Assembly (NCBI GenBank): GCA_029858305.1
Contig: JAOUFI010000036.1
Location: 1-21,699, forward strand
Source: Candidatus Thorarchaeota archaeon
GTDB taxonomy: Archaea > Asgardarchaeota > Thorarchaeia > Thorarchaeales > Thorarchaeaceae
Direction: 5' to 3'
Length of the DNA: 21,699 bases
In this document: positions 2,655-21,699 of the stretch, one piece after another
Numbering within the stretch: the stretch's first letter is position 1
Layout: every line of letters starts with the position of its first letter
The notes under the pieces: model-generated
What the model was told of the DNA's origin: nothing
The model's database searches: none
What the model saw: the letters and a program-made list of their open reading frames with translations, nothing else
Made by a program: the position numbers and the translations under genes

Positions 2655-2693
2655 TACTATAGTAGATGTTCAATAATGTCAATTGAGTGTCTA

Positions 2694-3765: not shown

Positions 3766-3897
3766 TGTATCTCAATTCACTGATAACTTAAACACAAAAA
3801 GCCATATCGGTTCTGCCAAGGATTCTGATTGTCAAGCTTCGAGATGGTCTAAAGGCTTGCTTGCCTCAGTATGTACAACAGAAAAATGATGCAGACA

Positions 3898-4248
3898 TTA
3901 AGGACGTACTGTGAGCAGTTCACCTATTGATCGGGTGGTCTCAATTGTTCCCCTGACCGCATTGACGCTGTACTCCAGTTCTTCAATTATCTCGTTGGCA
4001 ACTCTGTCGAGGTCCCTAACATCCTCGAGAATGTATCTGAAGGTTAGAGGAAGTCCTTTGCGTACAACGCCCACTGCAGATAGAGTAAGTCTGCGTACAT
4101 GTTTTGGCCCATCCATGAAAGGACCTTGGTAATATTCTGGGCTATAGACGACCAAAGCCGCCTCGTTGATAATATCTTTGAAGTCAGAATAGCTGTCTAA
4201 CTGCACCGGGGGAATAAACACATTCTGTTCGTTAGTCATAATTTCCAT
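3898..4248 (-). CDS. Hypothetical protein
   Basis: ORF with ATG at 4248 (or 4239). The extension to GTG 4332 runs through a structured GC-rich segment and is probably untranslated. Confidence 0.7.
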   Translation of the reverse strand: MEIMTNEQNVFIPPVQLDSYSDFKDIINEAALVVYSPEYYQGPFMDGPKHVRRLTLSAVGVVRKGLPLTFRYILEDVRDLDRVANEIIEELEYSVNAVRGTIETTRSIGELLTVRP

Positions 4249-4332
4249 CTCGCTGCTCGGGAACCCTATATCACCCCATTGTTTCCGATGGAGATTCTCA
4301 GGGTTTCCACTGGTTTGCGGCCTCCCGGCCAC
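4249..4332 (-). ncRNA. Candidate structured 5' leader or small RNA with two GNRA-capped hairpins
   Basis: Minus-strand RNA: GUGGCC-GGGA-GGCCGC hairpin (4332-4317). Second hairpin GGAAACCCU/AGGGUUCCC (4308-4259) with inner stem CUCCAUCG-GAAA-CAAUGGGG. Begins 23 nt downstream of TTTATATA. Confidence 0.5.
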
Positions 4333-4355
4333 AACTATTAGTATATAATCAAACC

Positions 4356-4363
4356 TATATAAA
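4356..4363 (-). promoter_or_regulatory. Archaeal TATA box (TTTATATA)
   Basis: Plus strand reads tatataaa in an AT-rich intergenic region. Spacing predicts a transcription start near 4332. Confidence 0.55.
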
Positions 4364-4444
4364 TATATCTAATCTTTTATTTTAATCGTTAATCGTCTAA
4401 ATAAAGGTTATTGGAACACATGTTCTAAATAGATGGTCATGTAC

Positions 4445-4467
4445 AAAAAGCAAAGAAAAAAGGGAAA
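4445..4467 (-). terminator. Oligo-T archaeal-type terminator
   Basis: TTTCCCTTTTTTCTTTGCTTTTT directly follows the stop codon of the 4468..4941 gene. Confidence 0.6.
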
Positions 4468-4941
4468 TCAGAAGCTTTCGCAAACCTTGCGTATCTTTCG
4501 AATCTGATCCGATTTGATGAAAGCAAGATACTCATAGAGCCGCCGCATAATTTCTGACTTTGCCCTGGAGGCTATTGAGTTAAAGAACGAGAATCCCTTG
4601 AACTCCATCTCAAGGGCACGATTACAGACATAGAACCGCGGGTCAGTATCAGGATTGGATTGAGCGAAAGGAGTGCGATCCATTCCAAAAGGAGTGGGAT
4701 CGGGATCTTCCTGGAAAAAAGACTCTTTCCTGACCTCCTCAATGGCATCCAGAATGCCAGTCGTCATCATGAGCTTAATCCTATCCATGAGGTCGCCCTC
4801 TGTTTCAGCAAGGACCAACAATAAGGCCTTCACTCGAGGGGTCTCCACAGCGTTGGCTGCTTTGAGATAGAAATCATAGTGATTAGCAGCAGTTGTGAGG
4901 GCAACTCTTAGCATATTCTGGACAGCAGTCTTGTCGGTCAT
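4468..4941 (-). CDS. Ferritin/rubrerythrin-like four-helix-bundle protein, paralog A (degenerate diiron site)
   Basis: FYLKAA...VKALLLVLAETE and RALEMEFKGFSFF...RRLYEYLA give the duplicated helix-pair pattern of the ferritin-like superfamily. ATG at 4941. Confidence 0.72.
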   Translation of the reverse strand: MTDKTAVQNMLRVALTTAANHYDFYLKAANAVETPRVKALLLVLAETEGDLMDRIKLMMTTGILDAIEEVRKESFFQEDPDPTPFGMDRTPFAQSNPDTDPRFYVCNRALEMEFKGFSFFNSIASRAKSEIMRRLYEYLAFIKSDQIRKIRKVCESF

Positions 4942-4998
4942 TGAAAAAGTATACAACAGCGAACAAAGAAAGCACTTTCTATCATCTAATCAATTGGT

Positions 4999-5451
4999 CT
5001 AGAATGTCCCACATACTTTTCGAACCCTCTCGATCTGTTGCGACTTGATGAATGCAAGATATTCGAAAACGCGGCTAACAATCTCGGATTTTGCGCGTGC
5101 AGCAATGGAGAGGTAGAATGTGTACCCCTTGACCTCTTGTTCAAGAGCCCTATTACAGACAAAGATACGAGGATCAGTATCATTACGGTCAGGTGCAAAA
5201 GGAGTGTCGTTAGGAGGCCTTTCACTGACTTCAACTTTTCCCATTGCCTCTATTTCATCCAACACACCAGTCGCCATCATGTGGCGTATCTGTGCAATAA
5301 GGTCACGCTCAGTGTCAGCAAGAACCCTAAGTAATGCTTTGACCTTGGGGGTTTCGACATTGTCAGCCGTTTCTCTATAGTACTCATAATTACGTGTAGA
5401 CATGGTCAAGGCGAGATTCAGAAGATTTTCTAGGGGATTCTTTTGACTCAT
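4999..5451 (-). CDS. Ferritin/rubrerythrin-like protein, paralog B (degenerate diiron site)
   Basis: Aligns end to end with paralog A (VETPxVKALL, DTDPRxxVCNRALE, RAKSEI, EYLAFIKS, RKVC). ATG at 5451. Confidence 0.72.
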   Translation of the reverse strand: MSQKNPLENLLNLALTMSTRNYEYYRETADNVETPKVKALLRVLADTERDLIAQIRHMMATGVLDEIEAMGKVEVSERPPNDTPFAPDRNDTDPRIFVCNRALEQEVKGYTFYLSIAARAKSEIVSRVFEYLAFIKSQQIERVRKVCGTF

Positions 5452-5508
5452 AAGGTGCAAAAGACAGTAATTTGTAAAGAAAATGGTTTCTGTGTTGCAC
5501 CCATTCTA

Positions 5509-6225
5509 CTAAGGTCTCTCAAAACCCTCCGGGTCTGTGAGGTAATCAGATACAATGGAATATTCCTCATCTGACATGGAGTCTCGGAGAATAAGCAGAC
5601 CATCATATACGATATCAATGAGACAATGTAACCGTAGATTTAGGGCACGAGCACGCTGACGTGCTCCTTGATGTCGATCAAGGATGACTGCGATGTCGTT
5701 ACATGTCACATCAGAGAGTCCTCGCTTCTCAACCTCTGCAAGGACTTGATCGCGCGCTACAACCTTGCTCTCCATCCCTGTAACTAGGTCGTCGACTAGA
5801 CAGAGTGCATCACCATCTTCAATGATACCCTCCAAGAATGAGTGCTGTCCGTACGCACTGATAGCTTGTTTCATCTCTTCCTCAGTTCTTACACCTAGAA
5901 TCTTACGAGTGTGACATGCAGGAATTCCAGACTCGAGTGAGATGGATGTCGCGATTGGAATGCCAGCAAATGCCACTCCCACAAGCCTATTGACATGAGG
6001 GGCTTTTTCCTGAATAAGAATTGAGAGCGCCTGTCCAACCTTGGCAAGGGTTTCAGGGTATGAACAGAGCTCACGAAGTTGGATATAGAATGGGCTCCAC
6101 ATTCCAGAGTGTAGAGTCCAGCCTTCGGGTTTATCACGTATTGACGTGAGGACCATCCTCTTATCGTAGATGTCTCGCATTATCTCAGTCTTGAGCTTAT
6201 CTAGGAGAGCTGTACTATCGCTCAT
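5509..6225 (-). CDS. pyrE: Orotate phosphoribosyltransferase-like type I PRTase
   Basis: TLHSGMWSPFYIQLR, LVGVAFAGIPIA, PRPP loop LVDDLVTG, and ILDRHQGA. Start is ATG 6225 or GTG 6234. Confidence 0.75.
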   Translation of the reverse strand: MSDSTALLDKLKTEIMRDIYDKRMVLTSIRDKPEGWTLHSGMWSPFYIQLRELCSYPETLAKVGQALSILIQEKAPHVNRLVGVAFAGIPIATSISLESGIPACHTRKILGVRTEEEMKQAISAYGQHSFLEGIIEDGDALCLVDDLVTGMESKVVARDQVLAEVEKRGLSDVTCNDIAVILDRHQGARQRARALNLRLHCLIDIVYDGLLILRDSMSDEEYSIVSDYLTDPEGFERP

Positions 6226-6325
6226 GTGTGACACTCAAGATTCCTGTTGTGCGTTCGTGCTTAACTCTCTATCGTCTTTTGGAGAAAGTGAGAACAGATA
6301 TACAGCTTGGCGCCGAGGTTGATCT

Positions 6326-7396
6326 ATGAACTCAAACGATCTTGCTCAATGGTTGCTATGGAATGCAGGACCTTGTATTAGATTCCGCACCTTGGTGGAG
6401 ATTCTTCACGAGCAAGATGTTAGTCTGGTATCACAAGCTCTTCAGGAACTGCTTGTGAGTCCCGAGGTGGTAGAGTGGACGAGTAGATTGAATCCCCAAT
6501 TCGATATCAACAGTATACATTCAGGAAAACCGAATGCCTTTGAGAATGTGATTGGAAAGCTTGTGCAGTTGGGCGTCAGGGCTGGACTTCAACCGTTTGA
6601 TAACAAGACCCTTCCCTTCCGGGTCTGGTTGTCAGAAAATGTGGAAGTATATCCAGAAACGCCTCACGCAGTGTTTCTCCGAACAATCATAGCCGCCTTT
6701 CTTGCATTTGCTGGCTATGATTCGATTAGTCCGGTCATGGCACAGATGACAAAGCGCCTGCAAGCTCTCTACTTGTTTGCAAAAGATCCAGACTTTGCGA
6801 GTGTTTTTGTTGACAAATCAGAAACCAATGGGTTTCCCGAGGGTAGTGAGAATCACCAGCTTGTAAACCCAGAGTTATACCAAGACCAGCAATTCATGCT
6901 TCCATGGATTCATGACATCCGAGGGCTATCAAGTTGCATTGACATCCTCTCCAAACAAAGCTACGTATCTAAGACCGAAAAGATAGTTGAGATGATTCTT
7001 ACCAGTGAATATCAGAGCTTGCCATCGAGCTATGGATTGGCTAAGTATGGCAAGAGATACTATGTTCTGGGGTGGGCCGTACATCTGCCAGGTTACTCAG
7101 CCAAACCAGAGGGGAGAAGTTTTGCTAATCTCTTGCTCACTCTGGAGGTCATGGGAAAATTCCCTGTGGCTCGAAAAAATCCTTGGTTCGTAAACTCGAT
7201 AGAGTATCTGGAGAGTTTCAGAACTGAGTACGGCACGTACATCTTTCCGTTTTCTTGGTTACCAGAGAAGCAAACTGGCTACTGGGTCGGAGGATTACGG
7301 ATGGGTTATGATGAACGAAAGAGCTATCCAAAGGCTATAGAGTGTGAATCAACATTCAGGATGCTCAAGATAAAACAGATTGCTGGTGGAACGTGA
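6326..7396 (+). CDS. Hypothetical protein, possibly an alpha-helical toroid (prenyltransferase/cyclase-like)
   Basis: 356-aa ORF with ATG start. N-terminal WLLWNAGPCIRFRTLVEIL. The fold call is a weak impression only. Confidence 0.7.
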   Translation: MNSNDLAQWLLWNAGPCIRFRTLVEILHEQDVSLVSQALQELLVSPEVVEWTSRLNPQFDINSIHSGKPNAFENVIGKLVQLGVRAGLQPFDNKTLPFRVWLSENVEVYPETPHAVFLRTIIAAFLAFAGYDSISPVMAQMTKRLQALYLFAKDPDFASVFVDKSETNGFPEGSENHQLVNPELYQDQQFMLPWIHDIRGLSSCIDILSKQSYVSKTEKIVEMILTSEYQSLPSSYGLAKYGKRYYVLGWAVHLPGYSAKPEGRSFANLLLTLEVMGKFPVARKNPWFVNSIEYLESFRTEYGTYIFPFSWLPEKQTGYWVGGLRMGYDERKSYPKAIECESTFRMLKIKQIAGGT

Positions 7397-9585: not shown

Positions 9586-9960
9586 CTTTACTATTCCAGA
9601 TCATATCCATTTCCTTCTAATCACTGCTTCATTCTCTCAACGTCATTTGGATGACTCCTCCATGATACAGCAACTGGAATTCATCAACAACCTATTGTTG
9701 TTACATGCAGTCTGATTGATAGAAGTGCGATTAGTTCAGCAATATTATCATATATGGTAGATGTTATTGAATGGCACAACGTCTCAATGTCTTGGGATGG
9801 TGTCCATGTGAAATGAACTAGGTGAGTTTGCCATTTCTGTAACATCTGATTTTCCCACAATTGATTTAACTATTCAATAGATTGAGTACGCCAAAAATCA
9901 TAAAGATTAAGTTATAGTTTGAATTATTATTGTGGTTAGTTTTGAGGGGATTTGGAATAC

Positions 9961-11361
9961 ATGCTAAATAAGAAGAATTTTCTCATTGTATCATCTGTCT
10001 TGTTTGTTCTCTTTTTTTCTCAACTGCTTGTTGCAGGATTCATAATGAATACAGAAGAAATCAAAAATGAAAATTCAACTCTAGAGCGAAACGGCGTCTA
10101 TACTCTTGCATACGAAACATCTGGAGTTGAGATAGTATTTGGAGGTGATTTTGCATATCATGAGATTTCGGCGTGGGAGAATTTCAATGATTGGTGGGAG
10201 GAGAACTATTCGATTGAAGTTCATGATCCTGGTTGGGGTTTTGTTCGAGATGTCATTGTTGAGGATATTGATGGTGATGGAGAACATGAAACAATCATCG
10301 CAAATAGTGGGAGCACAATCCATATCTTTGAACACAATGGGACTGACTTGGTTGAAGCATATAATATGACTCATCCTGCTTGGAGTAATGCTCAAGTCGT
10401 AACTCTTGCTGTGGGTGATCTTGATAATGATGAAGATTCCAACTTGGAAATTCTAGCCGGGACTTTTGACTTCAACTTTCAATCAGTTATTTTCAAAAAG
10501 GTCGGTGATTCATACCATCCAATTTTCAATATCTCTTCTTCTGATTCTAGAAATGTGGGCGGACCAGCCTGCTGTGTGGGAGATTTGGATAATAATGGTG
10601 ATCTCGAATTCATCGTCACTGAAGAGTTACCCAATGTTGATGGGGTATCTGAACTACGTCTATTCGACTGGCAGACAGACCACTGGGCTAACATTAGAAA
10701 CTACTCATTTGCTAAAGGTGCTTTTCATAATATGGTTCGACACATTCAGATTGCTGATGTGGATAATGATGGTGCTAGTGAAGTTCTCGTAGTTCATGAT
10801 CAAGAATGGGTACATATTCTAGAATATTCTGGTGGTTATTTTTCAAAATCCTGGAGTTGTCCGCTACTCACCGAAAATGTAGAAAGTGCAATAGCTGGTG
10901 ACATCACAAATGATGGATTAATTGATATCGTCATTCCAGATTCAGCAACAGATGTAGTGTATATCTATGAAACAGTCGAAGGGAGTATCATGAATACTTT
11001 CAATGTTTCTTTGGCTCATACATCAACCCGTTGGAATTGTATGGATATTGATGACTTGAATGCGGACGAACAGAATGAGTGGGTCTGTGTTTACTGGAAT
11101 GAAACCGCTTTTCCGTACATGTGGGTTTCTGTCTTCAAGAACAATACTTTGCTTCTGCAGAAATCAACTGGATTCCTAGAGGCCTCTGCTGTTGAAATTG
11201 GTAATTACGATAATGACGATGCTGGAACCATATCTACTACAACTCCAACAACTTCTAGTTCCGGTGGATTTTCAATACCAATGGAGATACTTGCGATTGT
11301 GATAATTGCACCAATTGCATTGATTCCCATTGCTATTGTTGTTAGACGCCAGCATAGGTAA
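9961..11361 (+). CDS. FG-GAP/VCBS-repeat beta-propeller surface protein with C-terminal TM anchor
   Basis: N-terminal signal, seven Ca-binding-type repeats (DIDGDG, DLDNDE, DLDNNG, DVDNDG, DITNDG, DLNADE, NYDNDD), Thr/Ser linker, TM helix and RRQHR tail. GAGGGGA lies upstream of ATG 9961. Confidence 0.85.
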   Translation: MLNKKNFLIVSSVLFVLFFSQLLVAGFIMNTEEIKNENSTLERNGVYTLAYETSGVEIVFGGDFAYHEISAWENFNDWWEENYSIEVHDPGWGFVRDVIVEDIDGDGEHETIIANSGSTIHIFEHNGTDLVEAYNMTHPAWSNAQVVTLAVGDLDNDEDSNLEILAGTFDFNFQSVIFKKVGDSYHPIFNISSSDSRNVGGPACCVGDLDNNGDLEFIVTEELPNVDGVSELRLFDWQTDHWANIRNYSFAKGAFHNMVRHIQIADVDNDGASEVLVVHDQEWVHILEYSGGYFSKSWSCPLLTENVESAIAGDITNDGLIDIVIPDSATDVVYIYETVEGSIMNTFNVSLAHTSTRWNCMDIDDLNADEQNEWVCVYWNETAFPYMWVSVFKNNTLLLQKSTGFLEASAVEIGNYDNDDAGTISTTTPTTSSSGGFSIPMEILAIVIIAPIALIPIAIVVRRQHR

Positions 11362-13230: not shown

Positions 13231-15534
13231 TCAAGGGCTACTGACCCAAATAGGACCAATGTACGATGTCCTTCCATTCGCACCAACAATTCGAATTGCA
13301 TAGTAGTCCATTCCACCGGTGCTCAATAGAGATGGATTAATGGGATTCTCGCTGCGTTCATTTATGTAGTAGTTACTATCCGCTCCCTCAACACACTCAT
13401 CATATTGTGTCCCTATAATTGCATCAGTATCTGTGATTGTGATAATTCCAAATGGTGCAGACAGTTGAATTGATTGCCAAATCACACCATTCTTGATTAT
13501 CTCAATAGTCGCACCCCAGTTAGGAGCCCAGCCTATACCTGCTGTTGCCGCATGATTGAAACCTGCTGCAGGCGAACCATCTTGAGCAACGAATATTGTC
13601 AAGTTGCGCGAGGTTGTGGGCGTTGCAACAAATACAGTAGAATTGTATCCTACTGGTACGTCATTAATTGAGAAGTCAAGGATGGGCCGTCCATAGTCCG
13701 AGTTTGCATACACCTGTCCACTATCCAAGCCGCTGAAGATGCCATCCCTTGTCAGACTTGTTGCATACACTGCAGTGATACCACTAGGATAGGGATGTCC
13801 ATTCCTGGCATTGTAGAGGGTGTAGGGATATTGATGCCCAACGCGAGCTCTTGTGTGGCTGATGCTATGGCCAGGATGCCCATCATGATTGTCACCATTT
13901 GCTATGAATGTCATTCTGTAACCCATACTCAAGGCGTCAATGACAGATGAACCTGGTATTGGTGTTGCGGGAAGGTCAACCGACCCCCTATAGTTCAATT
14001 CGTTATCGTAGAGGCATTCTCCATGTACAGATGTGACTTCCACTAATTTGACATATTTTGGATTCATCAGAGTCCAGTCCTGTATGAACATACTTCGAAT
14101 AGTATGATGAGGAATAGCTAAAGCGTGGTTTCCAGTGGATGCCGTAAAGTCATCAAGTAATGACCAGAGCTCACTAGCCGTGTTCTCAGTAATAGCTGAG
14201 ATTATGGGCATGGTTTCTCCGCTGAAGATACACGTGTAGTGTCCGCCTATTGCTATGGGCACAGGAATGAACGGAAAGGTTTGATCAACGTAGTTCGTGG
14301 TCCATTCAATACCATATAACGTGACGAACTCATTGGGAGCATAAGCATCGGCTGTTGATGCAATGTAGTCCCAATATTCAGCAGTACCCGTCTTCAATCG
14401 ATCAAACATGGTAAAATCAAGACCATGGTCAGTGAGGGACATAAAATCCAGACGAGAAACATATCGACCGTAATAGTATGATTCTGTAGGTGCACCGGAC
14501 CCATCAGAAATTGCTGAATGGCTGTGAAGATCGCCCCAGTAGATTCTTGGAGAATCAACAGCAAAGTCATCAACGATTATAGGGTTGCTCCAGTAGGTAT
14601 TCTGTGTGAGTGAGTCCTCGACAAGTAAATAGTGAATTCCAACGGTATTAATTCGAGTTGTGAACGAATGAAGTCCGAAGTCCTGAGAGCCAAGCATCAC
14701 ATACGCTGGGACAACTCCTGCGCTATAGAAGGCACCAGTGAACGTGTACTCCCCAGGTAGAGTTGCATCAACGCCTGATAATGGCAAGCCGGTTGTCAAA
14801 TTATAAGAAACAATAGAGAAATTAACAGTCCCTTGATAGCTACTACTTAGACGCTCAAAGGAATCCCATACTTCAACTGTAACTACAAAATCATCATCAA
14901 GATTTACTGTGGAGGGGGCTTGAATCCAGAGCAAAGTGGGACTATTATCGAACAGCACACCAAGGTCAATATTTATGCTGGACCACATGAGAAGTGGGGC
15001 TACGAAGATAACGATAGTAGCCAATGTCTTGAGTCTGAGGGAGAGCTTGGGTCTGCTCGTTAATGCGTCAATTTTTATTCGATTCGCAAAGATTCTTTGT
15101 ACCAGCGACTTTTTTACTAAGTTGGATGAAGTCTTTTGTTTCTTGAGTAACCTGTGAATTAGAGTTCTGATAGACCGTGCTCCAAAGATGATCAATGAGC
15201 CAAGTAGATATGATATCAGGACAAGAAAGATGAGAAGAATCCACAGCCATGCATATACTGCCATGGCGCCTGTTAGTAGGCCTGAAGAATATGCCAAGAC
15301 ATAACCGTGTCTTCGCCACGCGCCTTCTTTTGAAAATGCAGCAAGACTGATTCCAATTAGAATTCCAAGAATACTCCAATAATAGAGTAGGATAGTCCAC
15401 ACTCCAAATGTGTAGAGCGCTATACGACCAATTCGTAATGTAATTCGAAATACTGGAGATTGCTTGATGTGTTGTAATCTCAAAGTAAGGGAATCTGTGT
15501 CACTAGAAGGGATTGTGTTTTCTGCAGCATCCAT
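13231..15534 (-). CDS. Membrane-anchored PHP-fold metallohydrolase (DUF3604-like)
   Basis: YWGDLHSHSAISDG, SLTDH, GIEWT, GGHY, IPHH, EVTSVHG and GDNHDGHPG metal motifs, preceded by several N-terminal TM helices. Confidence 0.8.
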   Translation of the reverse strand: MDAAENTIPSSDTDSLTLRLQHIKQSPVFRITLRIGRIALYTFGVWTILLYYWSILGILIGISLAAFSKEGAWRRHGYVLAYSSGLLTGAMAVYAWLWILLIFLVLISYLLGSLIIFGARSIRTLIHRLLKKQKTSSNLVKKSLVQRIFANRIKIDALTSRPKLSLRLKTLATIVIFVAPLLMWSSINIDLGVLFDNSPTLLWIQAPSTVNLDDDFVVTVEVWDSFERLSSSYQGTVNFSIVSYNLTTGLPLSGVDATLPGEYTFTGAFYSAGVVPAYVMLGSQDFGLHSFTTRINTVGIHYLLVEDSLTQNTYWSNPIIVDDFAVDSPRIYWGDLHSHSAISDGSGAPTESYYYGRYVSRLDFMSLTDHGLDFTMFDRLKTGTAEYWDYIASTADAYAPNEFVTLYGIEWTTNYVDQTFPFIPVPIAIGGHYTCIFSGETMPIISAITENTASELWSLLDDFTASTGNHALAIPHHTIRSMFIQDWTLMNPKYVKLVEVTSVHGECLYDNELNYRGSVDLPATPIPGSSVIDALSMGYRMTFIANGDNHDGHPGHSISHTRARVGHQYPYTLYNARNGHPYPSGITAVYATSLTRDGIFSGLDSGQVYANSDYGRPILDFSINDVPVGYNSTVFVATPTTSRNLTIFVAQDGSPAAGFNHAATAGIGWAPNWGATIEIIKNGVIWQSIQLSAPFGIITITDTDAIIGTQYDECVEGADSNYYINERSENPINPSLLSTGGMDYYAIRIVGANGRTSYIGPIWVSSP

Positions 15535-15662
15535 TCAGAGAACCCAGAAAGGCACGTACAATCCCCCATAAAAAGAAGCACTATTTTTCCAAGAATTTCT
15601 TACTAATTTAAAAGACCCTTGTGCATTACATTTTGCTCCATCTTCAATCTTGGTGTTCAAAG

Positions 15663-17084
15663 ATGACAGCAGTGTATTCTGAGAAACTAAGTCGTCGGAA
15701 TCTATGGGGATGGGCTCTCGGTGCAATCCCTACGGGATTATTGGCATTTGTCTTTAGTCTTAAGTATGTAGAATTCTTCTTTGACGATCTAGGTCTACTT
15801 CCATCCTTCTTCATCGCTGGACAAGTAGTCTATATGATAATTAACGCAGTGAACGATCCGCTGTTAGGGCAGTTATCGGATCAGACAAATAGGGAGAAGT
15901 GGGGTAGTAGACGCCTGGTATACATAAGGTATGGAGGCCCCATTTGGGCACTGACTTTCATTCTTGTATGGTTTCCATGGAGCTTGACAAACCAGATCAT
16001 TATCTTCATTCATTATGTAATCACGATCTGTTTGTTTGATACACTGCTTACAATGGTGCTTCTTGTCTGGTTGGCAGTACTTCCAGAGATGACAACAGAT
16101 ATCGATGAACGGAACAAGGCTCAGTTTTACGCTGGTGTCTTGGGAACAATCGTTGTTTTACCAATATTCATCATGATTGCTACAATGGAACCCAACTCAG
16201 ACGGGTTCCGTTATCTCATGCTACTGTTTGCTCTAATTTCAACTGTATTTCTGTGGCTCACAGCACGATATTGCGAAGAACGCCCAGAGTTCCAAGATGA
16301 CAAAACCTACACACTTGTTGAATCAATTAAAGCCACTTTCAAATCACGCACATTTCTCGTGTATGTCGGTTTCTACTTTAGTCAGAATTTCCTTAGTAGC
16401 TTAGGCCTGAGCTACTTCTTTGTGTATCTTCTGTTACTCGAGAGTGTCACACCAGGATTGAATACTCTGCTTCTCTTCTTTGCAATCTATTTCATTGTAG
16501 GTTATGCGGGAAACATTGTGTGTCTGAGATTGCAGCCAAAATGGGGAATGAGGAAGATAATCTTGCGATTCGGAGTATTGAGAACTATCAGCTCAATCGC
16601 TCTTTTCCTGATTATTCTTGTTCCTGTATTTGAACCATTGATTTGGTATGGGCTTGTTCTAACAACTTTTGTTAGTGGATATGGTATTTTCCAAATTCCA
16701 ATGCAATATCTTGCAATTGATGAGGATGAGGTTTTAAATGGCTCTAGAAGAGAAGGGATGTTCATCGGAGTGATGGCACTCCTAACAAAACCCGCTACAA
16801 GCCTTGGTCCAATCATCGCTACGGCAATTCTAGTTGCATTTGGATATGTTCAAGGTGGAGCACTTGCAGTTCAACCAGCTTCAGCATTTCTTGGAATCAA
16901 GATAATGTGGTTGCTACTCCCAGCAATAGTCGCGGGATTGAGTCTCATCTTCATCTACTATTACCCACTCTATGATCAGAAACTCGTTGATATGAAGGAG
17001 AAACTGGAGAAGCTACATCAAGAGAAGAGAGCTCGACTTAAGAGTGTAGAATCTGAGTCTGCCGAGTCTGAAATGAAGATGTGA
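15663..17084 (+). CDS. MFS transporter, glycoside-pentoside-hexuronide (GPH/MelB-like) family
   Basis: NAVNDPLLGQLSD, WGSRR, LPEMTTDIDER, IDEDEVLNGSRREGMFIG, YYYPL, and about 12 TM helices. ATG at 15663. Confidence 0.9.
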   Translation: MTAVYSEKLSRRNLWGWALGAIPTGLLAFVFSLKYVEFFFDDLGLLPSFFIAGQVVYMIINAVNDPLLGQLSDQTNREKWGSRRLVYIRYGGPIWALTFILVWFPWSLTNQIIIFIHYVITICLFDTLLTMVLLVWLAVLPEMTTDIDERNKAQFYAGVLGTIVVLPIFIMIATMEPNSDGFRYLMLLFALISTVFLWLTARYCEERPEFQDDKTYTLVESIKATFKSRTFLVYVGFYFSQNFLSSLGLSYFFVYLLLLESVTPGLNTLLLFFAIYFIVGYAGNIVCLRLQPKWGMRKIILRFGVLRTISSIALFLIILVPVFEPLIWYGLVLTTFVSGYGIFQIPMQYLAIDEDEVLNGSRREGMFIGVMALLTKPATSLGPIIATAILVAFGYVQGGALAVQPASAFLGIKIMWLLLPAIVAGLSLIFIYYYPLYDQKLVDMKEKLEKLHQEKRARLKSVESESAESEMKM

Positions 17085-17093
17085 GGACAAGAG

Positions 17094-17125
17094 TATTTGG
17101 GGAGATTGGGATGGCTCCCCAAATA
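17094..17125. terminator. Hairpin between convergent genes, probable bidirectional terminator
   Basis: Perfect 11-bp inverted repeat TATTTGGGGAG / CTCCCCAAATA with a 10-nt loop. Confidence 0.6.
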
Positions 17126-17133
17126 ATAATCAA

Positions 17134-18300
17134 TTAGCTAGCCTGTATTGGATAGGTACCATATTTCTCTCGGACTCGCATAACGGCCTCCCATCGATCA
17201 ACCGTGATTGCGGGATTGATACTATGACCGCTACTAAAGATGTAGCCACCACCTGGGGCGAGCTCTTGAATCAGCTTCTTGCTGTAATCCTCGATCTCCG
17301 AAATTGTGCCTTCAGCTAACATAACTGGACTGATATTACCGACAAATGTGATTTTGTCACCGTATTTTTCTTTGAGTTTGAAAATGTCATATTCAGGATT
17401 GGCAGTTGTTGGTTCAATGGGATTGAGTGCATCAACTCCACAATCAACGATGTCATCAAATAGGAGCATAAGGTCTCCATCAGAGTGAAGGAGTATCTTC
17501 GAACCACGTTTATGCGCTTCAACACAGATTCGTTTTAGCCATGGGAATACGTAGGTCCGGAAGCTCTTCGGACTCATGAAAGGACCGTTCTTGAATCCGT
17601 AGTCATCCCAGATTAGGATCAATTCCGCGCCATGATCTGCTAGTATCTTGGTTAACTCTAAAGCTAATTCGCCATTATCGTCGAAGACTTTCTTTGCTTG
17701 TTTTGGATGGCCAAGTATACGAGAAAATCTTTCGAATCCAAAAGCCTCCCAACTTGGTTCCATCATGCCACCAATGGCAGGGACTGAAAGAATCTCATTA
17801 TTCATCTGTTCTTGTACTTCTTTTCCTGCTAGATAAGCAGCCAATCGTTTTGGTTCGTGAGGGTCTGGACGTATCCAGCTCTCATACTCTTCGAAGTTCT
17901 TTAGATAACCTCCATGATATGCAGTGATTATGGTGCCATCTCCCTCATACTCTTCGAACTTCATTATTCGTCCGAATTCATCAATGATTCCACCCTTGAT
18001 GATCTTGCGTTGTGTATGTGTGACTAGACTAATGCCAATATCGATTTTTACACGACGAAGAAACTCATAGTAATCAGTATAACCCTTAGCTAAGAACTTT
18101 TGATTACTTACAGCCCAATTTGCTATTCGATCCTTGAATGGTAGGTATTTGAGGGCACTTATACCACTCGTCAATCCCCCACCAGTGGGAATACCATAAT
18201 GCTCCATGATAGTGTTGTTCGTGAATGCGCTCTCAAATGCAGGTACCCGGTCAGGTTCTTCGTGATTTATCGCCTTCAACACGCGAGTTGGTGCATCCAA
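17134..18300 (-). CDS. Uroporphyrinogen decarboxylase (URO-D)/cobalamin methyltransferase superfamily protein
   Basis: RVLKAINHEEPDRVP, IWDDYG, MSPKSFRTYVFPW, LLHSDG, FVGNI, APGGGYIFSSGHSI. TTG start preceded by GGAGGT. Confidence 0.88.
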   Translation of the reverse strand: MDAPTRVLKAINHEEPDRVPAFESAFTNNTIMEHYGIPTGGGLTSGISALKYLPFKDRIANWAVSNQKFLAKGYTDYYEFLRRVKIDIGISLVTHTQRKIIKGGIIDEFGRIMKFEEYEGDGTIITAYHGGYLKNFEEYESWIRPDPHEPKRLAAYLAGKEVQEQMNNEILSVPAIGGMMEPSWEAFGFERFSRILGHPKQAKKVFDDNGELALELTKILADHGAELILIWDDYGFKNGPFMSPKSFRTYVFPWLKRICVEAHKRGSKILLHSDGDLMLLFDDIVDCGVDALNPIEPTTANPEYDIFKLKEKYGDKITFVGNISPVMLAEGTISEIEDYSKKLIQELAPGGGYIFSSGHSINPAITVDRWEAVMRVREKYGTYPIQAS

Positions 18301-18305
18301 TGAAA

Positions 18306-18935
18306 TCAGACCTCCAGTAGCGCTTTGATGCGCCGTACTCCATCAATAGCATCTGCACCATAATCATCAGCGCCTAGTTCTTTTGCGATTGCCATATTTA
18401 GCGGAGCTCCACCTACAATCAGTTTCACATCATCACGAAGTCCAGCATCTCTCAGAGCTTTGTCAACAGTAGAGATTTCTCTCATGGTCATTGTGAGTAA
18501 GCAACTGAGCGCAACTACTTTCGCTCCAGAGCCTTTTACCGCTTGAACAATCTTGTCTGCAGGACAGTCCATACCTAGGTCAATAACATCAATACCTGCT
18601 GACAGTAGCATTGTGGAGAGGATATTCTTACCAATATCATGGTTATCGCCCCTCACAGTGGCTGCAATGATCTGAGTTCTGGCATCAGCATTTGAAGTAG
18701 TCAGATGGGGCTTCAGGATCGCAAAAGCCTCCTTCATTGTTTCACCCGCCAAAACTAGCTCGGCAAGGAAGTATTCATTTGTTTCATATCGGCGCCCAAC
18801 CTCATCCATACCTTTTGTTAGGGCTTCAAGTACAGTAAAAGGATCGACACACGCATCGAGTTGATTCTGAACAGCGGATGCAATATTATCTACGTCTAGT
18901 TCAATAATCATATTGGTAATGTCTTTGAGGTTCAA
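18306..18935 (-). CDS. Methyltransferase cognate corrinoid (B12-binding) protein, MtaC/MttC-like
   Basis: Cap domain GMDEVGRRYE...YFLAEL, DxHxxG motif GDNHDIGKN, SCLLT and VGGAP. TTG start preceded by AGGAG. Confidence 0.93.
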   Translation of the reverse strand: MNLKDITNMIIELDVDNIASAVQNQLDACVDPFTVLEALTKGMDEVGRRYETNEYFLAELVLAGETMKEAFAILKPHLTTSNADARTQIIAATVRGDNHDIGKNILSTMLLSAGIDVIDLGMDCPADKIVQAVKGSGAKVVALSCLLTMTMREISTVDKALRDAGLRDDVKLIVGGAPLNMAIAKELGADDYGADAIDGVRRIKALLEV

Positions 18936-19053
18936 TGTTAATTGCTCCTATTCAAAGTCTATTCAGATTCAAAGGGGGTAATATTGTTTCTTTATTTTGC
19001 TAGTCAGTAAGAGATTATAATCCGTTCTTACTCAGCACTGGTCTATATCTGGG

Positions 19054-21699
19054 GTGATTTTAATTTCAGAGAAGACGTTTGGATCAGGATATTTTGGAGA
19101 ATGGATTGATGATGATTTTGGCCTTCCGGCTTATCGCTATACATGCAATCAAAATAGTGACCCAAAGGCAAACACACACTTTGAGAGAGATCTCTGGCGT
19201 ATTCGGACGGAGCATCTCCATCAGGTAGGAAATGATAGACTGGTTGGGGTCGCTTCAAATCATGGACATATCAGAATTAGACAGGATGAAGGTAGTCCGA
19301 AATTTCTCAATGACTTCGATCCTACAAACTATCAATATGGGGGTGGATTTGGATACCTAACTGATGGTACTGTAGTACTTAGTACCTACTATTCTGGACA
19401 AGAACAGTTCTTTAATCGTATTTTTGGAATTGGATATTACCGAAAGAGTGTGAAGAGCGAGGGATTGTTCGCAGATCAAATAGTTTTTGCGCCCTATGGT
19501 GATGACCCTCTCATTATTTCTCAAGTAACAATTGGAAATGAGCGTGATAGAGAAGTTGATCTAAAATGGATTGAATATTGGGGCTGTCAACAGTATCAAT
19601 TTTCTTTCAAAGCACTCATGAGAAGCTTCGTATCAAAACTGCATCCAAATCACTATCGTAGAGGACTTTCAAAGCGCTTTAAACATGATATAAAGGTAGA
19701 AGGAAACAATAGAGGTCTTTTGGATAAGACACACTTCAAGGGGTATCTGTTGGGAGATAGGTTAAGCTGGAGTGTTTTCAACTTCGCATTAAGAAGCGGA
19801 ACTGGAAAGAAGCTAACTGGCGGACCTGTTAAATCACCAGTTCCTGAGGCTGTTCTTGAGGACCTAACACCCCCCTCGGTTTTTCTTGTGTCCCTAGATG
19901 CACCATTTGATGACTGTGGTACCGATGCAGCAGCCTTCTTTGGAGAAGGGGGGGTATTTTCACCAGATGGATTGCAGAAACAGCTCTCAAGAAACACGGA
20001 GGCTCAGGACTTTGAAAAGGGTTTATTTCTCGAAAGGAAATTGACTCTACAACCCGGCGAAAGAAAGACGATCTTCTTTGCATATGGTTACCTTCCAGAA
20101 GGTTTTGCTGTCGAAAATCTAGTTGCCAAATATAAGAAAGATCTTCCGAATCTACTGCAAGAATCATGCAATAAGTGGAAGATTGGACGAATTCAACTAA
20201 AGCTTGATAGTGATAAATGGGTCGACCGTGAACTCACTTGGCACAACTATTACCTCAGAAGTAATATGACATATGATAGTTTCTTCAAGGAACACATTCT
20301 CTCTCAGGGACATGTTTACCAATACATTATAGGATTTCAGGGTGCAGCAAGAGATCCTCTTCAGCATGCTCAGCCATTTGTCTTCTGTGAACCCTATATT
20401 GTAAAAGACATTCTTAGATATACGCTCAAAACAGTGACTTCTGAGGGAAGGATACCTTACGGCATCACTGGAAGTGGTATGATTATGCCATCTCCTTTCA
20501 AACCCAGTGATCAGGAGATGTGGCTCCTCTGGTTAGCAAGCGAGTATGTGCTTGCCACAAGGGATCTTGCATTTCTAGACGAAATGATTCCTACATATCC
20601 AGTATATGGCAAGAGAGCAGGAATGGCGAGCGTTCGAGATCTATTATACAGATGCTACAGTCATTTTATCGAAGCAACAGGAACAGGAGACCATGGACTG
20701 CAGCGCCTATCGAATGGAGACTGGAATGATGCAATGGTTCTAGGATATGTTCCAGATTATGAGCAATTGCAGGTTGAAGAAGTAGGGGAGAGTGTTCTCA
20801 ACGCTGCCATGGCTGCATATGCATTTGATATCTACTCACGATTATTGAGATACTCTGGTGACAATATACATGCAGATGAAGCTCTACAGTTGGCAGATAA
20901 TCAGAGAGCTGCAGTCCGCAAACAATGGACTGGAAAATGGTTCAGACGAGCATGGCTCTCAGAAGAACTTGGATGGGTTGGAGAGGATAATCTATGGTTA
21001 GAACCACAATCTTGGGCCATTATTGGGGGATCAGCAGATCCCGATCAGGCAAAGGTGTTAATCAAATCAATTGATGAGAATAATCGAAAGGCATCTAAGA
21101 TTGGAGCCACTATTCTCGGAAAGCCAGACAAAAAAATGGCAGGTGATGATGGAATAGGCACAAATGCTGGTATCTGGCCATCAATCAATGGCACACTTGT
21201 CTGGGCATTGGCACATGTTGATGGCAAAATGGCATGGGATGAATGGAAGAAGAACTCACTTACGATTCATGCTGAAAACTATCCAGATATCTGGTATGGA
21301 ATCTGGAGTGGGCCCGATACCTACAATTCTGAGTATTCAGACTTTCCTGGAGGAACTATCCACAAAGGTGAGGAAGACTCCTCTCGAGAAACAAAGGAAG
21401 AAAGAGAGCTTGAGCGCGTAGCTAGTGCTACTGAAGTTCTTTGGACTGATTACCCAGTCATGAATATGCACCCACACGCATGGCCATTGCAAAACATACC
21501 AAAACTGCTCGGTGTGGAGTTTAATGATGTAGGATTGGATTTTGCGCCATCACTGCCAATGGATGCCTATAGATTCTCCTCACCTCTATTAGCGTTTGAG
21601 AAGTCCAAATCGGGTTACAAGGGCATGTATGCTCCAATGAATAAAGGAAGCTGGAAAATCTCAATACGAGTTGAGAAACATGACCTTGTACGAGTAACT
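19054..21699 (+). CDS. GH94-like glycoside phosphorylase/hydrolase, truncated by window edge
   Basis: Absent from the ORF track. Frame 1 appears open from GTG 19054 to the window end: GYFGEWIDDDFGLPAYRY..., FQGAARDPLQHA, GLQRLSNGDWND, GESVLNAAMA, WTGKWFRRAW, LWLEPQSWAI. RD, DWND and GESV are (alpha/alpha)6 GH94-type motifs. Confidence 0.82.
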   Translation, partial: MILISEKTFGSGYFGEWIDDDFGLPAYRYTCNQNSDPKANTHFERDLWRIRTEHLHQVGNDRLVGVASNHGHIRIRQDEGSPKFLNDFDPTNYQYGGGFGYLTDGTVVLSTYYSGQEQFFNRIFGIGYYRKSVKSEGLFADQIVFAPYGDDPLIISQVTIGNERDREVDLKWIEYWGCQQYQFSFKALMRSFVSKLHPNHYRRGLSKRFKHDIKVEGNNRGLLDKTHFKGYLLGDRLSWSVFNFALRSGTGKKLTGGPVKSPVPEAVLEDLTPPSVFLVSLDAPFDDCGTDAAAFFGEGGVFSPDGLQKQLSRNTEAQDFEKGLFLERKLTLQPGERKTIFFAYGYLPEGFAVENLVAKYKKDLPNLLQESCNKWKIGRIQLKLDSDKWVDRELTWHNYYLRSNMTYDSFFKEHILSQGHVYQYIIGFQGAARDPLQHAQPFVFCEPYIVKDILRYTLKTVTSEGRIPYGITGSGMIMPSPFKPSDQEMWLLWLASEYVLATRDLAFLDEMIPTYPVYGKRAGMASVRDLLYRCYSHFIEATGTGDHGLQRLSNGDWNDAMVLGYVPDYEQLQVEEVGESVLNAAMAAYAFDIYSRLLRYSGDNIHADEALQLADNQRAAVRKQWTGKWFRRAWLSEELGWVGEDNLWLEPQSWAIIGGSADPDQAKVLIKSIDENNRKASKIGATILGKPDKKMAGDDGIGTNAGIWPSINGTLVWALAHVDGKMAWDEWKKNSLTIHAENYPDIWYGIWSGPDTYNSEYSDFPGGTIHKGEEDSSRETKEERELERVASATEVLWTDYPVMNMHPHAWPLQNIPKLLGVEFNDVGLDFAPSLPMDAYRFSSPLLAFEKSKSGYKGMYAPMNKGSWKISIRVEKHDLVRVT

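Follow-up and report, generated by a model that had tools for sequence, protein, structure and literature searches.

A GH94-like enzyme linked to URO-D-family and corrinoid proteins in Asgard archaea: a possible module for demethylation of O-methylated sugars

O-Methylated sugars occur widely in the glycans of algae, plants, and microbes. Aerobic marine bacteria demethylate 6-O-methyl-D-galactose with a cytochrome P450, which is oxygen-dependent and releases formaldehyde, and to our knowledge the sole known route for O-methyl-sugar demethylation needs oxygen. The use of such sugars in anoxic sediments may be touched by a locus from a Thorarchaeota archaeon in which a corrinoid protein and a URO-D-family protein are encoded beside a GH94-like enzyme. 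Does this locus serve the demethylation of O-methyl sugars, as an earlier note had proposed? This reading fitted the module best in the analysis reported here, and it is held with somewhat less than even confidence. Like the P450 enzyme, the proposed system would remove an O-methyl group that blocks algal-sugar catabolism; unlike it, the system would be anaerobic, corrinoid-dependent, and methyl-conserving.

The analyzed window (21,699 nt) is one entire Thorarchaeota contig, JAOUFI010000036.1, and the 3' end of the GH94-like gene is therefore cut at the contig end. Open reading frames were present at all five positions at which the earlier note had placed genes (Table 1). The corrinoid protein gene and the URO-D-family gene, here termed U1, indeed lie on the same strand with a gap of 5 nt (18301-18305). 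The transporter gene converges with U1 across 49 nt; between it and the divergent PHP gene lie 86 nt. The divergent layout around 18936..19053 also occurred in Thor-type and three other family arrangements. A profile scan of the 21 window ORFs found no member of the MtaB, MttB, or MtmB families, in agreement with the earlier reading. Only DNA runs were listed as containing positions 15621-21699, with no RNA run among them.

Table 1. Features of the locus within the window
Feature	Position	Strand	Remarks
PHP-like protein (DUF3604 / CehA-McbA-like), membrane-anchored	13231..15534	-	767 aa; Pfam, NCBIfam
MFS_2 / GPH-type sugar:cation symporter	15621..17084	+	487 aa; Pfam, NCBIfam
U1, URO-D/MtaA-superfamily protein, proposed corrinoid-dependent methyltransferase	17134..18300	-	388 aa
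Corrinoid (B12-binding) protein, MtbC/MtgC/MtaC-like	18306..18935	-	209 aa; 5 nt upstream of U1
Intergenic region (118 nt) between the corrinoid-U1 pair and the divergent GH94-like gene	18936..19053	.	presumed site of both promoters
GH94-like (alpha/alpha)6-barrel glycoside phosphorylase or hydrolase	19054..21699	+	first 882 aa here; rest on contig C184

Contig C184, when reversed, begins in frame with the missing ~37 C-terminal residues of the GH94-like protein and continues into two more URO-D paralogs, Uc (354 aa) and then Ub (390 aa). Thus, the module contains not a single URO-D gene, as had been assumed, but three paralogs (U1, Uc, and Ub). The full locus assembled from both contigs comprises the MFS_2/GPH transporter, U1, and the corrinoid protein, followed divergently by the GH94-like enzyme, Uc, and Ub. 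We propose that the window carries one half of a conserved catabolic module.

Linkage was evaluated from both sides, with 80 GH94-like ortholog loci out of 400 Asgard genomes (locus L179, with a GH94-like piece of <1.5 kb, was left out) and with 57 loci of U1 orthologs sharing at least 54% identity. A URO-D-family gene lay within 3 kb of the GH94-like gene in 50 of the 80 loci; 28 of these held a U1, Ub, or Uc ortholog and 22 a distant paralog only. Clustering of ORFs without the query proteins gave URO-D linkage in 51/80. Within 5 kb of the GH94-like gene, a corrinoid gene was found in 18/80 loci and an MFS_2 gene sharing 30% identity or more with the transporter in 19/80. Seen from the other side, 14 of the 57 U1 loci had a GH94-like gene and 14 a corrinoid gene as neighbor, and transporter orthologs (68-74% identity) flanked U1 in eight Thor-type loci. 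Among 85 sampled genomes of the Thor family, 14 contained both the GH94-like gene and U1, two the former only, and one the latter only. Of the five genes whose linkage the earlier note wished to see tested, four therefore recur together, namely the GH94-like gene, URO-D, the corrinoid gene, and, at lower frequency, the MFS_2/GPH transporter; the linkage does not extend to the PHP protein. The GH94-linked U1 genes fell into three separate clades in a quick tree with SH-aLRT support only. For a clade of 27 shorter Loki-type U1 proteins, the genes sit in a conserved block alongside those for ribosomal protein S10, an inositol monophosphatase, and a DNA glycosylase, and both the GH94-like and the corrinoid gene are missing from the vicinity.

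Gene order was shuffled between Asgard families. With '<' and '>' giving gene direction, '|' a strand switch, and CP the corrinoid protein, the arrangements included GPH U1< CP< | GH94> Uc> Ub>; CP< | GH94> Uc> Ub>; Ub< GH94< | CP> U1> Uc>; GH94> Ub> | <U1 <CP; and GH94> U1> Ub> Uc>. The linkage survives at least five rearrangements; the compared genomes are kin, so that the locus counts exceed the number of independent events. Two proteins, P0238 (1451 aa) and P0234 (1445 aa), unite GH94, URO-D, and SCP2 domains in one polypeptide. Metagenome locus L183 encodes a GH94-like protein, a URO-D+SCP2 protein, a corrinoid protein, and a URO-D protein with His-x-Cys...Cys, and locus L187, on a 114-kb contig, interleaves five URO-D genes with GH94-like, GH31, and GH29 genes. 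Bacterial-type metagenome loci and gene fusions contradict the idea of an exclusively archaeal module. Whatever the substrate, linkage and fusion of GH94-like and URO-D proteins amount to a gene-neighborhood rule, which offers a working context for hundreds of database entries named 'uroporphyrinogen decarboxylase family protein' or 'GH36-type glycosyl hydrolase domain-containing protein'.

These data bear on the question of whether the corrinoid and URO-D genes instead serve a small methyl compound (methanol, methyl sulfides, or methylamines) and share a regulon or island with the sugar genes. Such a role would suit the patchy, island-like occurrence of the module (3/27 genomes of the genus), the closest models, which are those of the methylcobamide:CoM methyltransferases MtaA and MtbA, and the thiol-type zinc motif of Uc. 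URO-D matches numbered 85 in 423 kb of near flank around the GH94-like genes and 2 in 542 kb of flank at 3-8 kb, a density difference of ~54-fold. This local enrichment, the persistence of the linkage through rearrangement, and the fusion of GH94 and URO-D in one polypeptide all argue against two merely co-regulated gene sets, and we consider this explanation very improbable.

The GH94-like protein scored above the cut-offs of the Glyco_hydro_94 model (94.4 bits; cut-off 27) and the supersandwich model (31.9 bits; cut-off 23), and it had no NCBIfam match. Cellobiose/lactose phosphorylase was matched in the PDB at 1.7e-13, and a profile search returned 4zle (4e-24) and cellobiose phosphorylases (6e-21). 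In a HMMER alignment to 3s4c, the DWND motif with the catalytic Asp490 and the RD motif (Arg367-Asp368) were kept; the corresponding residues D551-W552-N553-D554 and R428-D429 were invariant in 14/14 homologs. According to PMC5501786, Asp490 is catalytic in C. gilvus CBP, Arg367-Asp368 and Trp488 bind sugar, and Arg351 and His666 bind phosphate. Serine stood opposite both phosphate ligands, in a part of the alignment that contains gaps and deserves moderate confidence, so that either phosphorylase or hydrolase activity would be compatible with it; Thr731 and Gly732 lay beyond the aligned stretch. Thus, the protein shares the supersandwich, the (alpha/alpha)6 barrel, DWND, and Arg-Asp with the GH94 phosphorylases of cellobiose, chitobiose, cellobionic acid, and cellodextrin, and differs from them as a remote subfamily, in this alignment by the two serines, and in being linked or fused to URO-D. 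The earlier note placed release of the methylated compounds before their import. This was not borne out: the translation has no obvious signal sequence, so that the enzyme is probably cytoplasmic and would act after import rather than free substrate extracellularly. Apparent stops inside GH94-like matches raised the possibility of recoding, which was rejected because the stops lie upstream of the start codon.

Import could be provided by the transporter, which scored 154.9 bits with MFS_2 (cut-off 27) and 110.6 bits, below the cut-off of 231.35, with the GPH model TIGR00792. Its homologs align from about residue 20, and the true start may therefore be the ATG at 15663. Other genes within 5 kb of the GH94-like gene encoded SGSH-like sulfatases (32/80 loci), MFS_2 proteins (22/80), GFO/IDH/MocA oxidoreductases (16/80), and radical SAM-SPASM proteins (13/80). 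In 16/80 loci, archaeal lipid genes adjoined, namely PcrB, a UbiA prenyltransferase (15 loci), and a geranylgeranyl-reductase-like gene. SCP2 was fused to URO-D also in L181, L183, and L187, and a free SCP2 gene lay between U1 and Uc in L082; 3 of the 16 URO-D+SCP2 loci, most of which are on short contigs, had an adjoining corrinoid gene. Against a sugar substrate, the SCP2 domains and the lipid genes of the 16 loci suggest that the compound may be hydrophobic and not purely a sugar. They could also mean that the module acts on glycolipids in place of imported glycans, remodeling or breaking down, for instance, head groups of sulfated or methylated glycosyl-archaeol, and the frequent sulfatases would fit this role as well. 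The lipid genes, however, occur in a single gene order, mostly in loci of a single Loki-type genus (g9), and their side relative to the GH94-like gene never changes, a pattern that fits inherited synteny. Moreover, lipid genes are missing from the Thor-type loci, including the one in the window, which encode a sugar importer, and L187 carries GH31 and GH29. Glycolipid turnover is the least probable of the explanations weighed here.

The identity of U1 was approached through models, fold, and motif. Its Pfam URO-D match (99.4 bits) is confined to the C-terminal half. As had been proposed, U1 is not HemE: it reached 33.7 bits with the hemE model TIGR01464 (equivalog cut-off 302.95), and MtaA-type models outscored hemE in 12/12 family members (best hemE E = 1.2e-9), its placement relative to HemE and MtaA being judged from HMM scores and fold ranks. 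The MtaA-type models gave 53-68 bits against cut-offs of 235-400; of the MtaA/CmuA models, neither TIGR01463 (56.4 bits, cut-off 235.4) nor NF040654 (52.8 bits, cut-off 400) was reached. An AF2 model (pLDDT 81.3, pTM 0.86) had a URO-D-type TIM-barrel fold, and its best Foldseek match was MtaA (4ay8/4ay7; 4ay8_A, E 1.9e-14). The TM score to 4ay8_A was 0.73 over the target and only 0.65 over the query owing to extra N-terminal elements in U1. Searches of PDB sequences with the U1 family profile placed CdmB (9rui) first, over residues 240-383 only (E 1.8e-4, 24.2 bits), with MtaA at an E value of about 3e-4, so that the family is only remotely like any characterized methyltransferase. Longer proteins (680-2000 aa) included no fused form of U1, which the search itself grades as weak evidence, and an ESM Atlas search returned further URO-D clusters and nothing else.

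In a HMMER alignment to 4ay7, LHSDGD and SSGHS of U1 stood opposite LHICGN and APGCGI of MtaA. Instead of the His-x-Cys...Cys residues of MtaA, which we take to be zinc ligands, U1 thus has His272-x-Asp274 and His359, the latter in a stretch (residues 350-359) with pLDDT <50 in the model. LHSDGD was present in 57/57 U1 orthologs. Uc retains the MtaA-type His-x-Cys...Cys (YHVCGD, SAGCEW), and Ub has His-x-Cys...His. Both stayed below the cut-offs of TIGR01463 (235.4) and NF040654 (400), with 77.8 and 68.8 bits for Uc and 25.8 and 36.1 bits for Ub. The module resembles the methanogen MT2 proteins MtaA/MtbA (4ay7/4ay8) in the TIM barrel, the adjacent corrinoid gene, the aligning motif positions, and the intact motif of Uc. 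It differs from them in the altered motifs of U1 and Ub, the low model scores, the extra N-terminal elements, the Asgard host, and the linkage to a glycoside-cleaving enzyme.

The corrinoid protein combines B12-binding_2 (68.6 bits) and B12-binding (80.5 bits) Pfam domains, that is, cap and Rossmann parts, and Asp97, His99, and Gly102 of its D-x-H-x-x-G motif were invariant in 14/14 homologs. It scored below the cut-offs of TIGR02370 (160.8 bits versus 215.3), MtbC (160.2 versus 350), and MtgC (152.3 versus 370). A complex of U1 with this protein was predicted with a score of 0.82, compared with 0.00 for the best control; the mark applied is passed by 116/157 solved complexes and 2/215 mismatched pairs, and a pass may stem from resemblance to solved complexes. 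Contacts agreed by at least 97% between runs, partner pLDDT was at least 84, and the predicted interface would span the D-x-H-x-x-G loop.

The genome (88.9% complete) encodes five URO-D paralogs and two corrinoid proteins, with two RACo_C_ter matches (RACo-type activase; one with in-frame stops), three MtrH matches, and one CdhC match; PF06253 and PF12176, for MttB and MtaB, had no match in it. An adjacent corrinoid protein, activase and MtrH matches, and Uc with the MtaA motif, as parts of an MT1 system, are all present in the genome. The postulated link to C1 metabolism gained support, since the parts that methyl transfer would need appear to be encoded (two RACo-type, three MtrH, one CdhC).

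Could the URO-D paralogs function without the corrinoid protein? HemE, the founder of the superfamily, is a cofactor-free decarboxylase. By analogy, the paralogs might be metal-dependent or cofactor-free TIM-barrel sugar enzymes, catalyzing decarboxylation or isomerization, with the corrinoid protein as a lineage-specific addition. No corrinoid gene was present within 5 kb in 62/80 GH94-like loci or in the locus (flanks up to 8 kb) of 43/57 U1 orthologs, the P0238 and P0234 fusions contain no B12 domain, and the replacement of Cys ligands by Asp and His in all U1 orthologs fits an altered chemistry. Yet the corrinoid gene recurs in loci of varied gene order (18/80) and in bacterial-type loci, MtaA is the best fold match, and Uc has the full MtaA motif. 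The predicted docking of U1 to the corrinoid protein points the same way. In addition, a TrmB+MEDS regulator adjoins Ub in 4/80 GH94-like loci, and the genome, with its two corrinoid proteins and activase matches, yielded no further MT1 family. On balance, non-corrinoid enzymes appear decidedly unlikely.

The methylated substrate itself might be aromatic. The earlier note's placement of O-demethylase MT1 components in the UroD superfamily is confirmed by PMC13222342: MtvB, OdmB, VdmB, and MtoB demethylate methoxylated aromatics, and the substrates of the superfamily MT1s named in passages of that paper are all aryl methyl ethers or haloalkanes. The present module would share with these proteins and CdmB the superfamily and a division of labor between MT1, a corrinoid protein, and MT2, supplemented by an activase (PMC13222342). 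In a corresponding scheme, the GH94-like enzyme would remove the sugar from a glycoside with a methoxylated-aromatic or hydrophobic aglycone (lignan, monolignol, or phenolic), and the URO-D paralogs would O-demethylate the aryl methyl ether, a chemistry for which known MT1 enzymes set the precedent. The SCP2 domain, which is a lipid/hydrophobic-ligand domain, fused or free, would be at home there. The neighbors, however, are of the carbohydrate type (sulfatases, sugar oxidoreductases, and GH31 and GH29 in L187), and the similarity to CdmB is marginal and limited to the C-terminal ~140 residues. U1, Ub, and Uc also keep a metal motif where CdmB has neither His nor Cys. Such a glycoside is therefore regarded as unlikely. 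Searches of openly accessible full-text papers yielded no description of a corrinoid- or URO-D-type system for methylated sugars or linked to glycoside hydrolases, and no report of a characterized UroD-superfamily MT1 beside a glycoside hydrolase.

For demethylation of O-methyl sugars, the following sequence of steps is conceivable, in which we infer methyl transfer, the MT1 and MT2 roles, and the methyl acceptor, and deduce an O-methylated sugar or glycoside substrate from the carbohydrate neighborhood. The transporter would import a methylated glycoside or oligosaccharide, which the cytoplasmic GH94-like enzyme would cleave. One or two of U1 (His/Asp/His) and Ub (His/Cys/His) would act as substrate-specific MT1 and methylate the Co(I) corrinoid protein with the sugar methyl group, most likely that of an O-methyl ether activated by the metal in the role of a Lewis acid. 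Two onward routes are conceivable: transfer to a thiol by Uc (His-x-Cys...Cys), or transfer to a pterin by one of the three MtrH homologs, with acetyl-CoA synthase as the next recipient. Corrinoid O-demethylases known so far act on aryl methyl ethers; the alkyl methyl ether of a sugar is chemically harder to cleave, and we know of no precedent for its cleavage by a corrinoid system. The many loci that lack a corrinoid gene, the fusions without a B12 domain, and the remote likeness to characterized methyltransferases also speak against this reading. Asgard archaea and some anaerobic bacteria may thus possess an unrecognized class of corrinoid-dependent O-demethylases for methylated sugars, with a re-tuned metal site and coupled or fused to GH94-like enzymes, a proposal made tentatively and with clearly less than even confidence. 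If true, cleavage of sugar methyl ethers by a corrinoid system would represent a new type of enzyme chemistry. Methyl groups from the glycans of algae and plants could feed the Wood-Ljungdahl pathway or pass to methanogenic partners in the absence of oxygen, as an added methyl source for acetogenesis and, indirectly, methanogenesis, and uncultured Asgard archaea would gain a concrete, testable catabolic trait.

The PHP protein stands apart. It has a hydrophobic N-terminal third followed by an H-x-H motif and scored 45.9 bits with DUF3604 (cut-off 20.4) and 47, below the cut-off of 80, with the CehA/McbA metallohydrolase model. The 56 other U1-ortholog loci, all nine Thor-type loci among them, yielded no homolog. 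PHP homologs occur in 1-2 copies per genome; in G346 and G370, two complete Thor genomes, they are encoded far away from the module. The protein is sporadically linked, and its membership in the module is doubtful. In 2/80 loci, G036 (adjacent) and G041, the GH94-like gene had a homolog at a distance of up to 8 kb; proximity to the module was confined to two Atabeyarchaeia-type genomes.

The window is a complete contig of 21,699 bases and belongs to a metagenome-assembled genome of 3.04 Mb (205 contigs, 88.9% complete). By the names attached to its closest protein relatives, the genome falls among Thorarchaeota-type Asgard archaea. An ORF and domain scan recovered all five genes of the candidate corrinoid-dependent glycoside O-demethylation locus at the coordinates of an earlier note. 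As that note had stated, the corrinoid gene and the gene for the URO-D-family protein, here called U1, are separated by 5 nt; the GH94-like gene diverges from this pair across 118 nt. None of the 21 window ORFs scanned matched MtaB, MttB, or MtmB, in agreement with the note, and PF06253 and PF12176 found no match anywhere in the whole 88.9% complete genome. A second contig of this genome, C184 (5,888 bases), when reversed opened in frame with about 37 residues matching the C-termini of full-length GH94-like orthologs. This reading frame, together with the order GH94-like gene, Uc, Ub (two further URO-D paralogs) in more than 10 relatives, argues that C184 continues the window; no sequence overlap between the two contigs was found at the junction.

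Features of the window and of contigs C184, C158, and C148 of the same genome
Feature	Contig	Position	Strand	Remarks
Family-5 solute-binding protein (Opp/Dpp type)	window	315-2654	+	779 aa; upstream of module
Tandem small ORFs	window	4468-5460	-	162 and 153 aa; weakly rubrerythrin-like
FG-GAP repeat protein	window	9952-11361	+	upstream of module
DUF3604 / CehA-McbA-like metallohydrolase (PHP) protein	window	13231-15534	-	767 aa; N-terminal third hydrophobic
MFS_2 transporter	window	15621-17084	+	resembles GPH model, score under its cut-off
U1, URO-D-family protein	window	17134-18300	-	388 aa
Corrinoid protein	window	18306-18935	-	209 aa; both B12 domains present
GH94-like protein	window	19054 to contig end	+	domain match
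Uc, URO-D paralog	C184	5756-4692	reverse	354 aa; after GH94-like C-terminus
Ub, URO-D paralog	C184	4690-3518	reverse	390 aa; 73% identical to relatives' Ub
ABC-2 transporter pair (ATPase and permease), then HTH regulator	C184 (locus L098)	within 1-5888	reverse	after Ub
Second corrinoid protein with SCP2-domain and metallo-beta-lactamase-fold proteins	C158 (locus L099)	4896-6991		adjoining genes
RACo-type activase match	C148	73199-73963		in-frame TAG and TAA

The two rubrerythrin-like ORFs cluster together, and only the second passed the Pfam cut-off. The solute-binding and FG-GAP proteins did not recur near the module except for weak matches of the former in loci L025, L069, and L138.

The earlier note had proposed to check the linkage by synteny. 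Eighty-one GH94-like ortholog loci were fetched, and 80 were counted, one piece being too short. A URO-D-family gene lay within 3 kb of the GH94-like gene in 50 of the 80, which bears the linkage out. Of these loci, 28 hold an ortholog of U1, Ub, or Uc there, and the other 22 no more than a distant paralog carrying a His-x-Cys motif. In an internal control, the near flanks (up to 3 kb; 423 kb in all) held 85 URO-D hits, and the flanks 3-8 kb away (542 kb) held 2. A corrinoid gene and an MFS_2 gene (at least 30% identity) were present within 5 kb in 18/80 and 19/80 loci, respectively, and a TrmB+MEDS regulator within 8 kb in 4/80. Layouts varied by family (divergent, convergent, or tandem, with the corrinoid gene present or absent), and the U1 genes linked to a GH94-like gene fell into three separate clades of a quick tree. 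Related genomes are not independent, so the locus counts make the events look more numerous than they are; a better argument for linkage is how varied the arrangements are.

Orthologs of U1 (55-94% identity) were common in Asgard archaea labelled Thor, Hel, Loki, Odin, and Hermod. Eighty loci were fetched from this side, and the counts refer to 57 of them, the window among these, in which the U1 ortholog was at least 54% identical. The GH94-like gene stood beside U1 in 14 of them, a corrinoid gene was likewise present in 14, and a close transporter ortholog in 9. The PHP protein, which the earlier note had listed at the locus, was seen in 0/56 other U1 loci and within 8 kb of the GH94-like gene in 2/80, and it is a doubtful member of the module. 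At genome level, the phylum sample of 400 genomes gave 113 with a GH94-like match (E up to 1e-30); a U1 ortholog was present in 101. Among 85 genomes of the Thor family, 14 had both genes, 2 the GH94-like gene only, and 1 U1 only; in one of the two with the GH94-like gene only, U1 was cut off at a contig end.

GH94, URO-D, and SCP2 domains occurred in one chain in two of the best 120 GH94-like homologs, P0238 (1451 aa, encoded on a 5.4-Mb contig) and P0234 (1445 aa); some other homologs were labelled Anaerolineales and Acidobacteriia. Metagenome contigs were queried with the URO-D+SCP2 part of P0238. Locus L183 has the order GH94-like, URO-D+SCP2, corrinoid protein (251 aa), URO-D (338 aa), the last with His-x-Cys ... 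Cys and 33% identity to Uc. We take this to be the usual order of known systems, that is, MT1 (methyl transfer onto the corrinoid), corrinoid protein, and MT2 (transfer off it). Locus L187, on a 114-kb contig, reads URO-D, then divergently GH94-like, URO-D+SCP2, GH31, URO-D, an unknown 879-aa protein, GH29 fucosidase, URO-D, and URO-D. In 3 of 16 loci with a URO-D+SCP2 gene, a corrinoid gene directly adjoined it; most of these loci are contigs below 2.7 kb. Since the linkage is conserved, shuffled, and sometimes fused, the GH94-like enzyme is very likely coupled functionally to the URO-D/MtaA-like proteins.

The possibility that U1 is a true HemE, raised in the earlier note, was dismissed: U1 scored 33.7 bits with the hemE model against a cut-off of 303. 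MtaA-type models outscored hemE for 12/12 family members, yet all scores stayed far under those models' own cut-offs. In an HMMER alignment, LHSDGD and SSGHS of U1 corresponded to LHICGN and APGCGI of the MtaA structure 4ay7, the segments that carry its zinc ligands His, Cys, and Cys. Of the three paralogs, Uc alone retains His-x-Cys ... Cys; the motif is His-x-Cys ... His in Ub and His-x-Asp ... His in U1. LHSDGD was found in 57/57 U1 orthologs of at least 54% identity; among 21 more distant relatives (40-48% identity), 18 had His-x-Cys, 1 had His-x-Asp, and 2 did not match the pattern. The exchange of thiolate ligands for Asp and His in U1 would fit a metal that activates an ether oxygen as a Lewis acid. 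The AlphaFold model of U1 (pLDDT 81.3, pTM 0.86) matched MtaA best (E 1.9e-14), followed by HemE structures (~1e-12), and the family profile barely reached CdmB (1.8e-4) and MtaA (2.9e-4) among PDB sequences. CdmB is described as a chloromethane MT1, and the UroD superfamily as including the O-demethylases MtvB, OdmB, VdmB, and MtoB, with homologs in Asgardarchaeota (PMC13222342).

The D-x-H-x-x-G motif of the corrinoid protein was kept in 14/14 homologs. A complex of U1 and the corrinoid protein was predicted with a score of 0.82 (runs 0.81-0.83) versus 0.00 for the best of three controls, with at least 97% contact agreement between runs and partner pLDDT of at least 84. The mark applied was reached by 116/157 solved complexes and 2/215 mismatched pairs; a passing score may reflect resemblance to solved complexes and does not amount to proof. 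In the predicted interface, the B12 loop of the corrinoid protein (residues 96-104, 147-151, and 176-178) faces loops of U1 (residues 189-197, 235-243, 298-300, 325-330, and 362-364) that probably form the C-terminal face of the barrel. The genome encodes two corrinoid proteins of the window type (64% identical to each other), five URO-D paralogs, three MtrH matches, one pterin-binding match, one CdhC match, and two RACo-type activase matches, of which the one on C148 represents a pseudogene or else an error of assembly. From this inventory and the absence of MtaB/MttB matches, the URO-D paralogs are the only candidate MT1 enzymes found in this genome.

The recurring corrinoid protein, MtaA-like fold, zinc motif of Uc, predicted docking, and MEDS regulators favour methyl transfer. 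That the URO-D paralogs are instead sugar enzymes other than methyltransferases is distinctly unlikely. Neighbours of the sulfatase, transporter, oxidoreductase, GH31, and GH29 types favour carbohydrate as the substrate. A small methyl donor unrelated to sugars appears very improbable. Demethylation of O-methyl sugars is the best-fitting reading, if a tentative one. Against it stand the local absence of the corrinoid gene at most loci, fusion proteins without a B12 domain, and the many U1 orthologs that stand alone. Furthermore, we know of no precedent for corrinoid-dependent cleavage of an alkyl methyl ether, which also counts against it.

By family profile, the closest solved relatives of the GH94-like protein were 4zle (4e-24), which we take to be a cellobionic-acid-type phosphorylase entry, and cellobiose phosphorylases (6e-21). 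Conserved in the protein are the DWND motif, which includes the catalytic residue Asp490, and Arg367-Asp368, which bind sugar. At the positions of Arg351 and His666, which bind phosphate, the alignment shows Ser. These residue roles are those given in PMC5501786. As the alignment at the phosphate ligands is of moderate confidence, the enzyme may be either a phosphorylase or a hydrolase.

A clustering that used no query proteins was applied to all ORFs lying up to 5 kb from the 80 GH94-like genes. Recurring neighbours, with numbers of loci out of 80, were URO-D of any kind (51), FAD or geranylgeranyl-reductase-like proteins (33), sulfatases with SGSH_C (32), MFS_2 (22 by clustering), an unknown ~249-aa protein with no Pfam match (18), the corrinoid protein (17 by clustering), PcrB (16), GFO/IDH/MocA oxidoreductases (16), UbiA (15), and radical SAM-SPASM proteins (13). 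The radical SAM-SPASM gene adjoining the sulfatase probably encodes a sulfatase-maturating enzyme. A common Loki-type layout was URO-D, GH94-like, sulfatase, MFS_2, FAD oxidoreductase. In 16 Loki-type loci (L102, L106, L108, L109, L133, L146, L148, L150, and others), genes for PcrB, a UbiA prenyltransferase, and a geranylgeranyl-reductase-like protein adjoin the GH94-like gene, with radical SAM-SPASM, sulfatase, and two GFO/IDH/MocA genes on the opposite side. The three former genes always lie on one side and in a single order, mostly in Loki-type genus g9, which looks like inherited synteny. Together with SCP2, found fused to or beside URO-D genes, they keep a lipid-linked substrate possible; a module for glycolipid remodelling seems very improbable. 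SCP2 hints at a hydrophobic ligand, against the O-methyl-sugar reading, and methoxy-aromatic or hydrophobic glycosides are an unlikely alternative substrate.

The three-part logic of corrinoid methyltransferases is already known, and MttB-like and MtrH-linked methyltransferases are described for Asgard archaea (PMC11291895). Full-text searches, subscription journals and supplements aside, found no paper on a corrinoid- or URO-D-type system that acts on methylated sugars or is tied to glycoside hydrolases. Neither the MtaA-like subfamilies with their altered metal site nor the coupling of these to a GH94-like enzyme appears to have been described.

A shorter Loki-type U1 (L024-L058 and others), missing roughly residues 40-70, formed a 27-row clade in the quick tree. 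These genes sit in a conserved block with methylpurine-DNA glycosylase, three small unknown ORFs, inositol monophosphatase, and ribosomal protein S10; neither a GH94-like nor a corrinoid gene is nearby, and a Ub-like gene is often convergent. Contigs recorded as 'Candidatus Nanopelagicaceae bacterium' (L052, L085) or as 'Pirellulales' (L059) also carried Asgard-like U1-family genes, L052 having the Loki-type neighbourhood as well; these contigs are probably mis-binned. In the complete chromosome of genome G370, the module is split into parts ~95 kb apart with both boundary genes truncated. Of the two loci, L056 and L178, one keeps only residues 138-208 of the corrinoid protein, along with U1 and the transporter; in the other, the C-terminal part of the GH94-like protein (from residue ~404) is present with Uc and Ub. 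The split seems to stem from a rearrangement in which both genes were disrupted.
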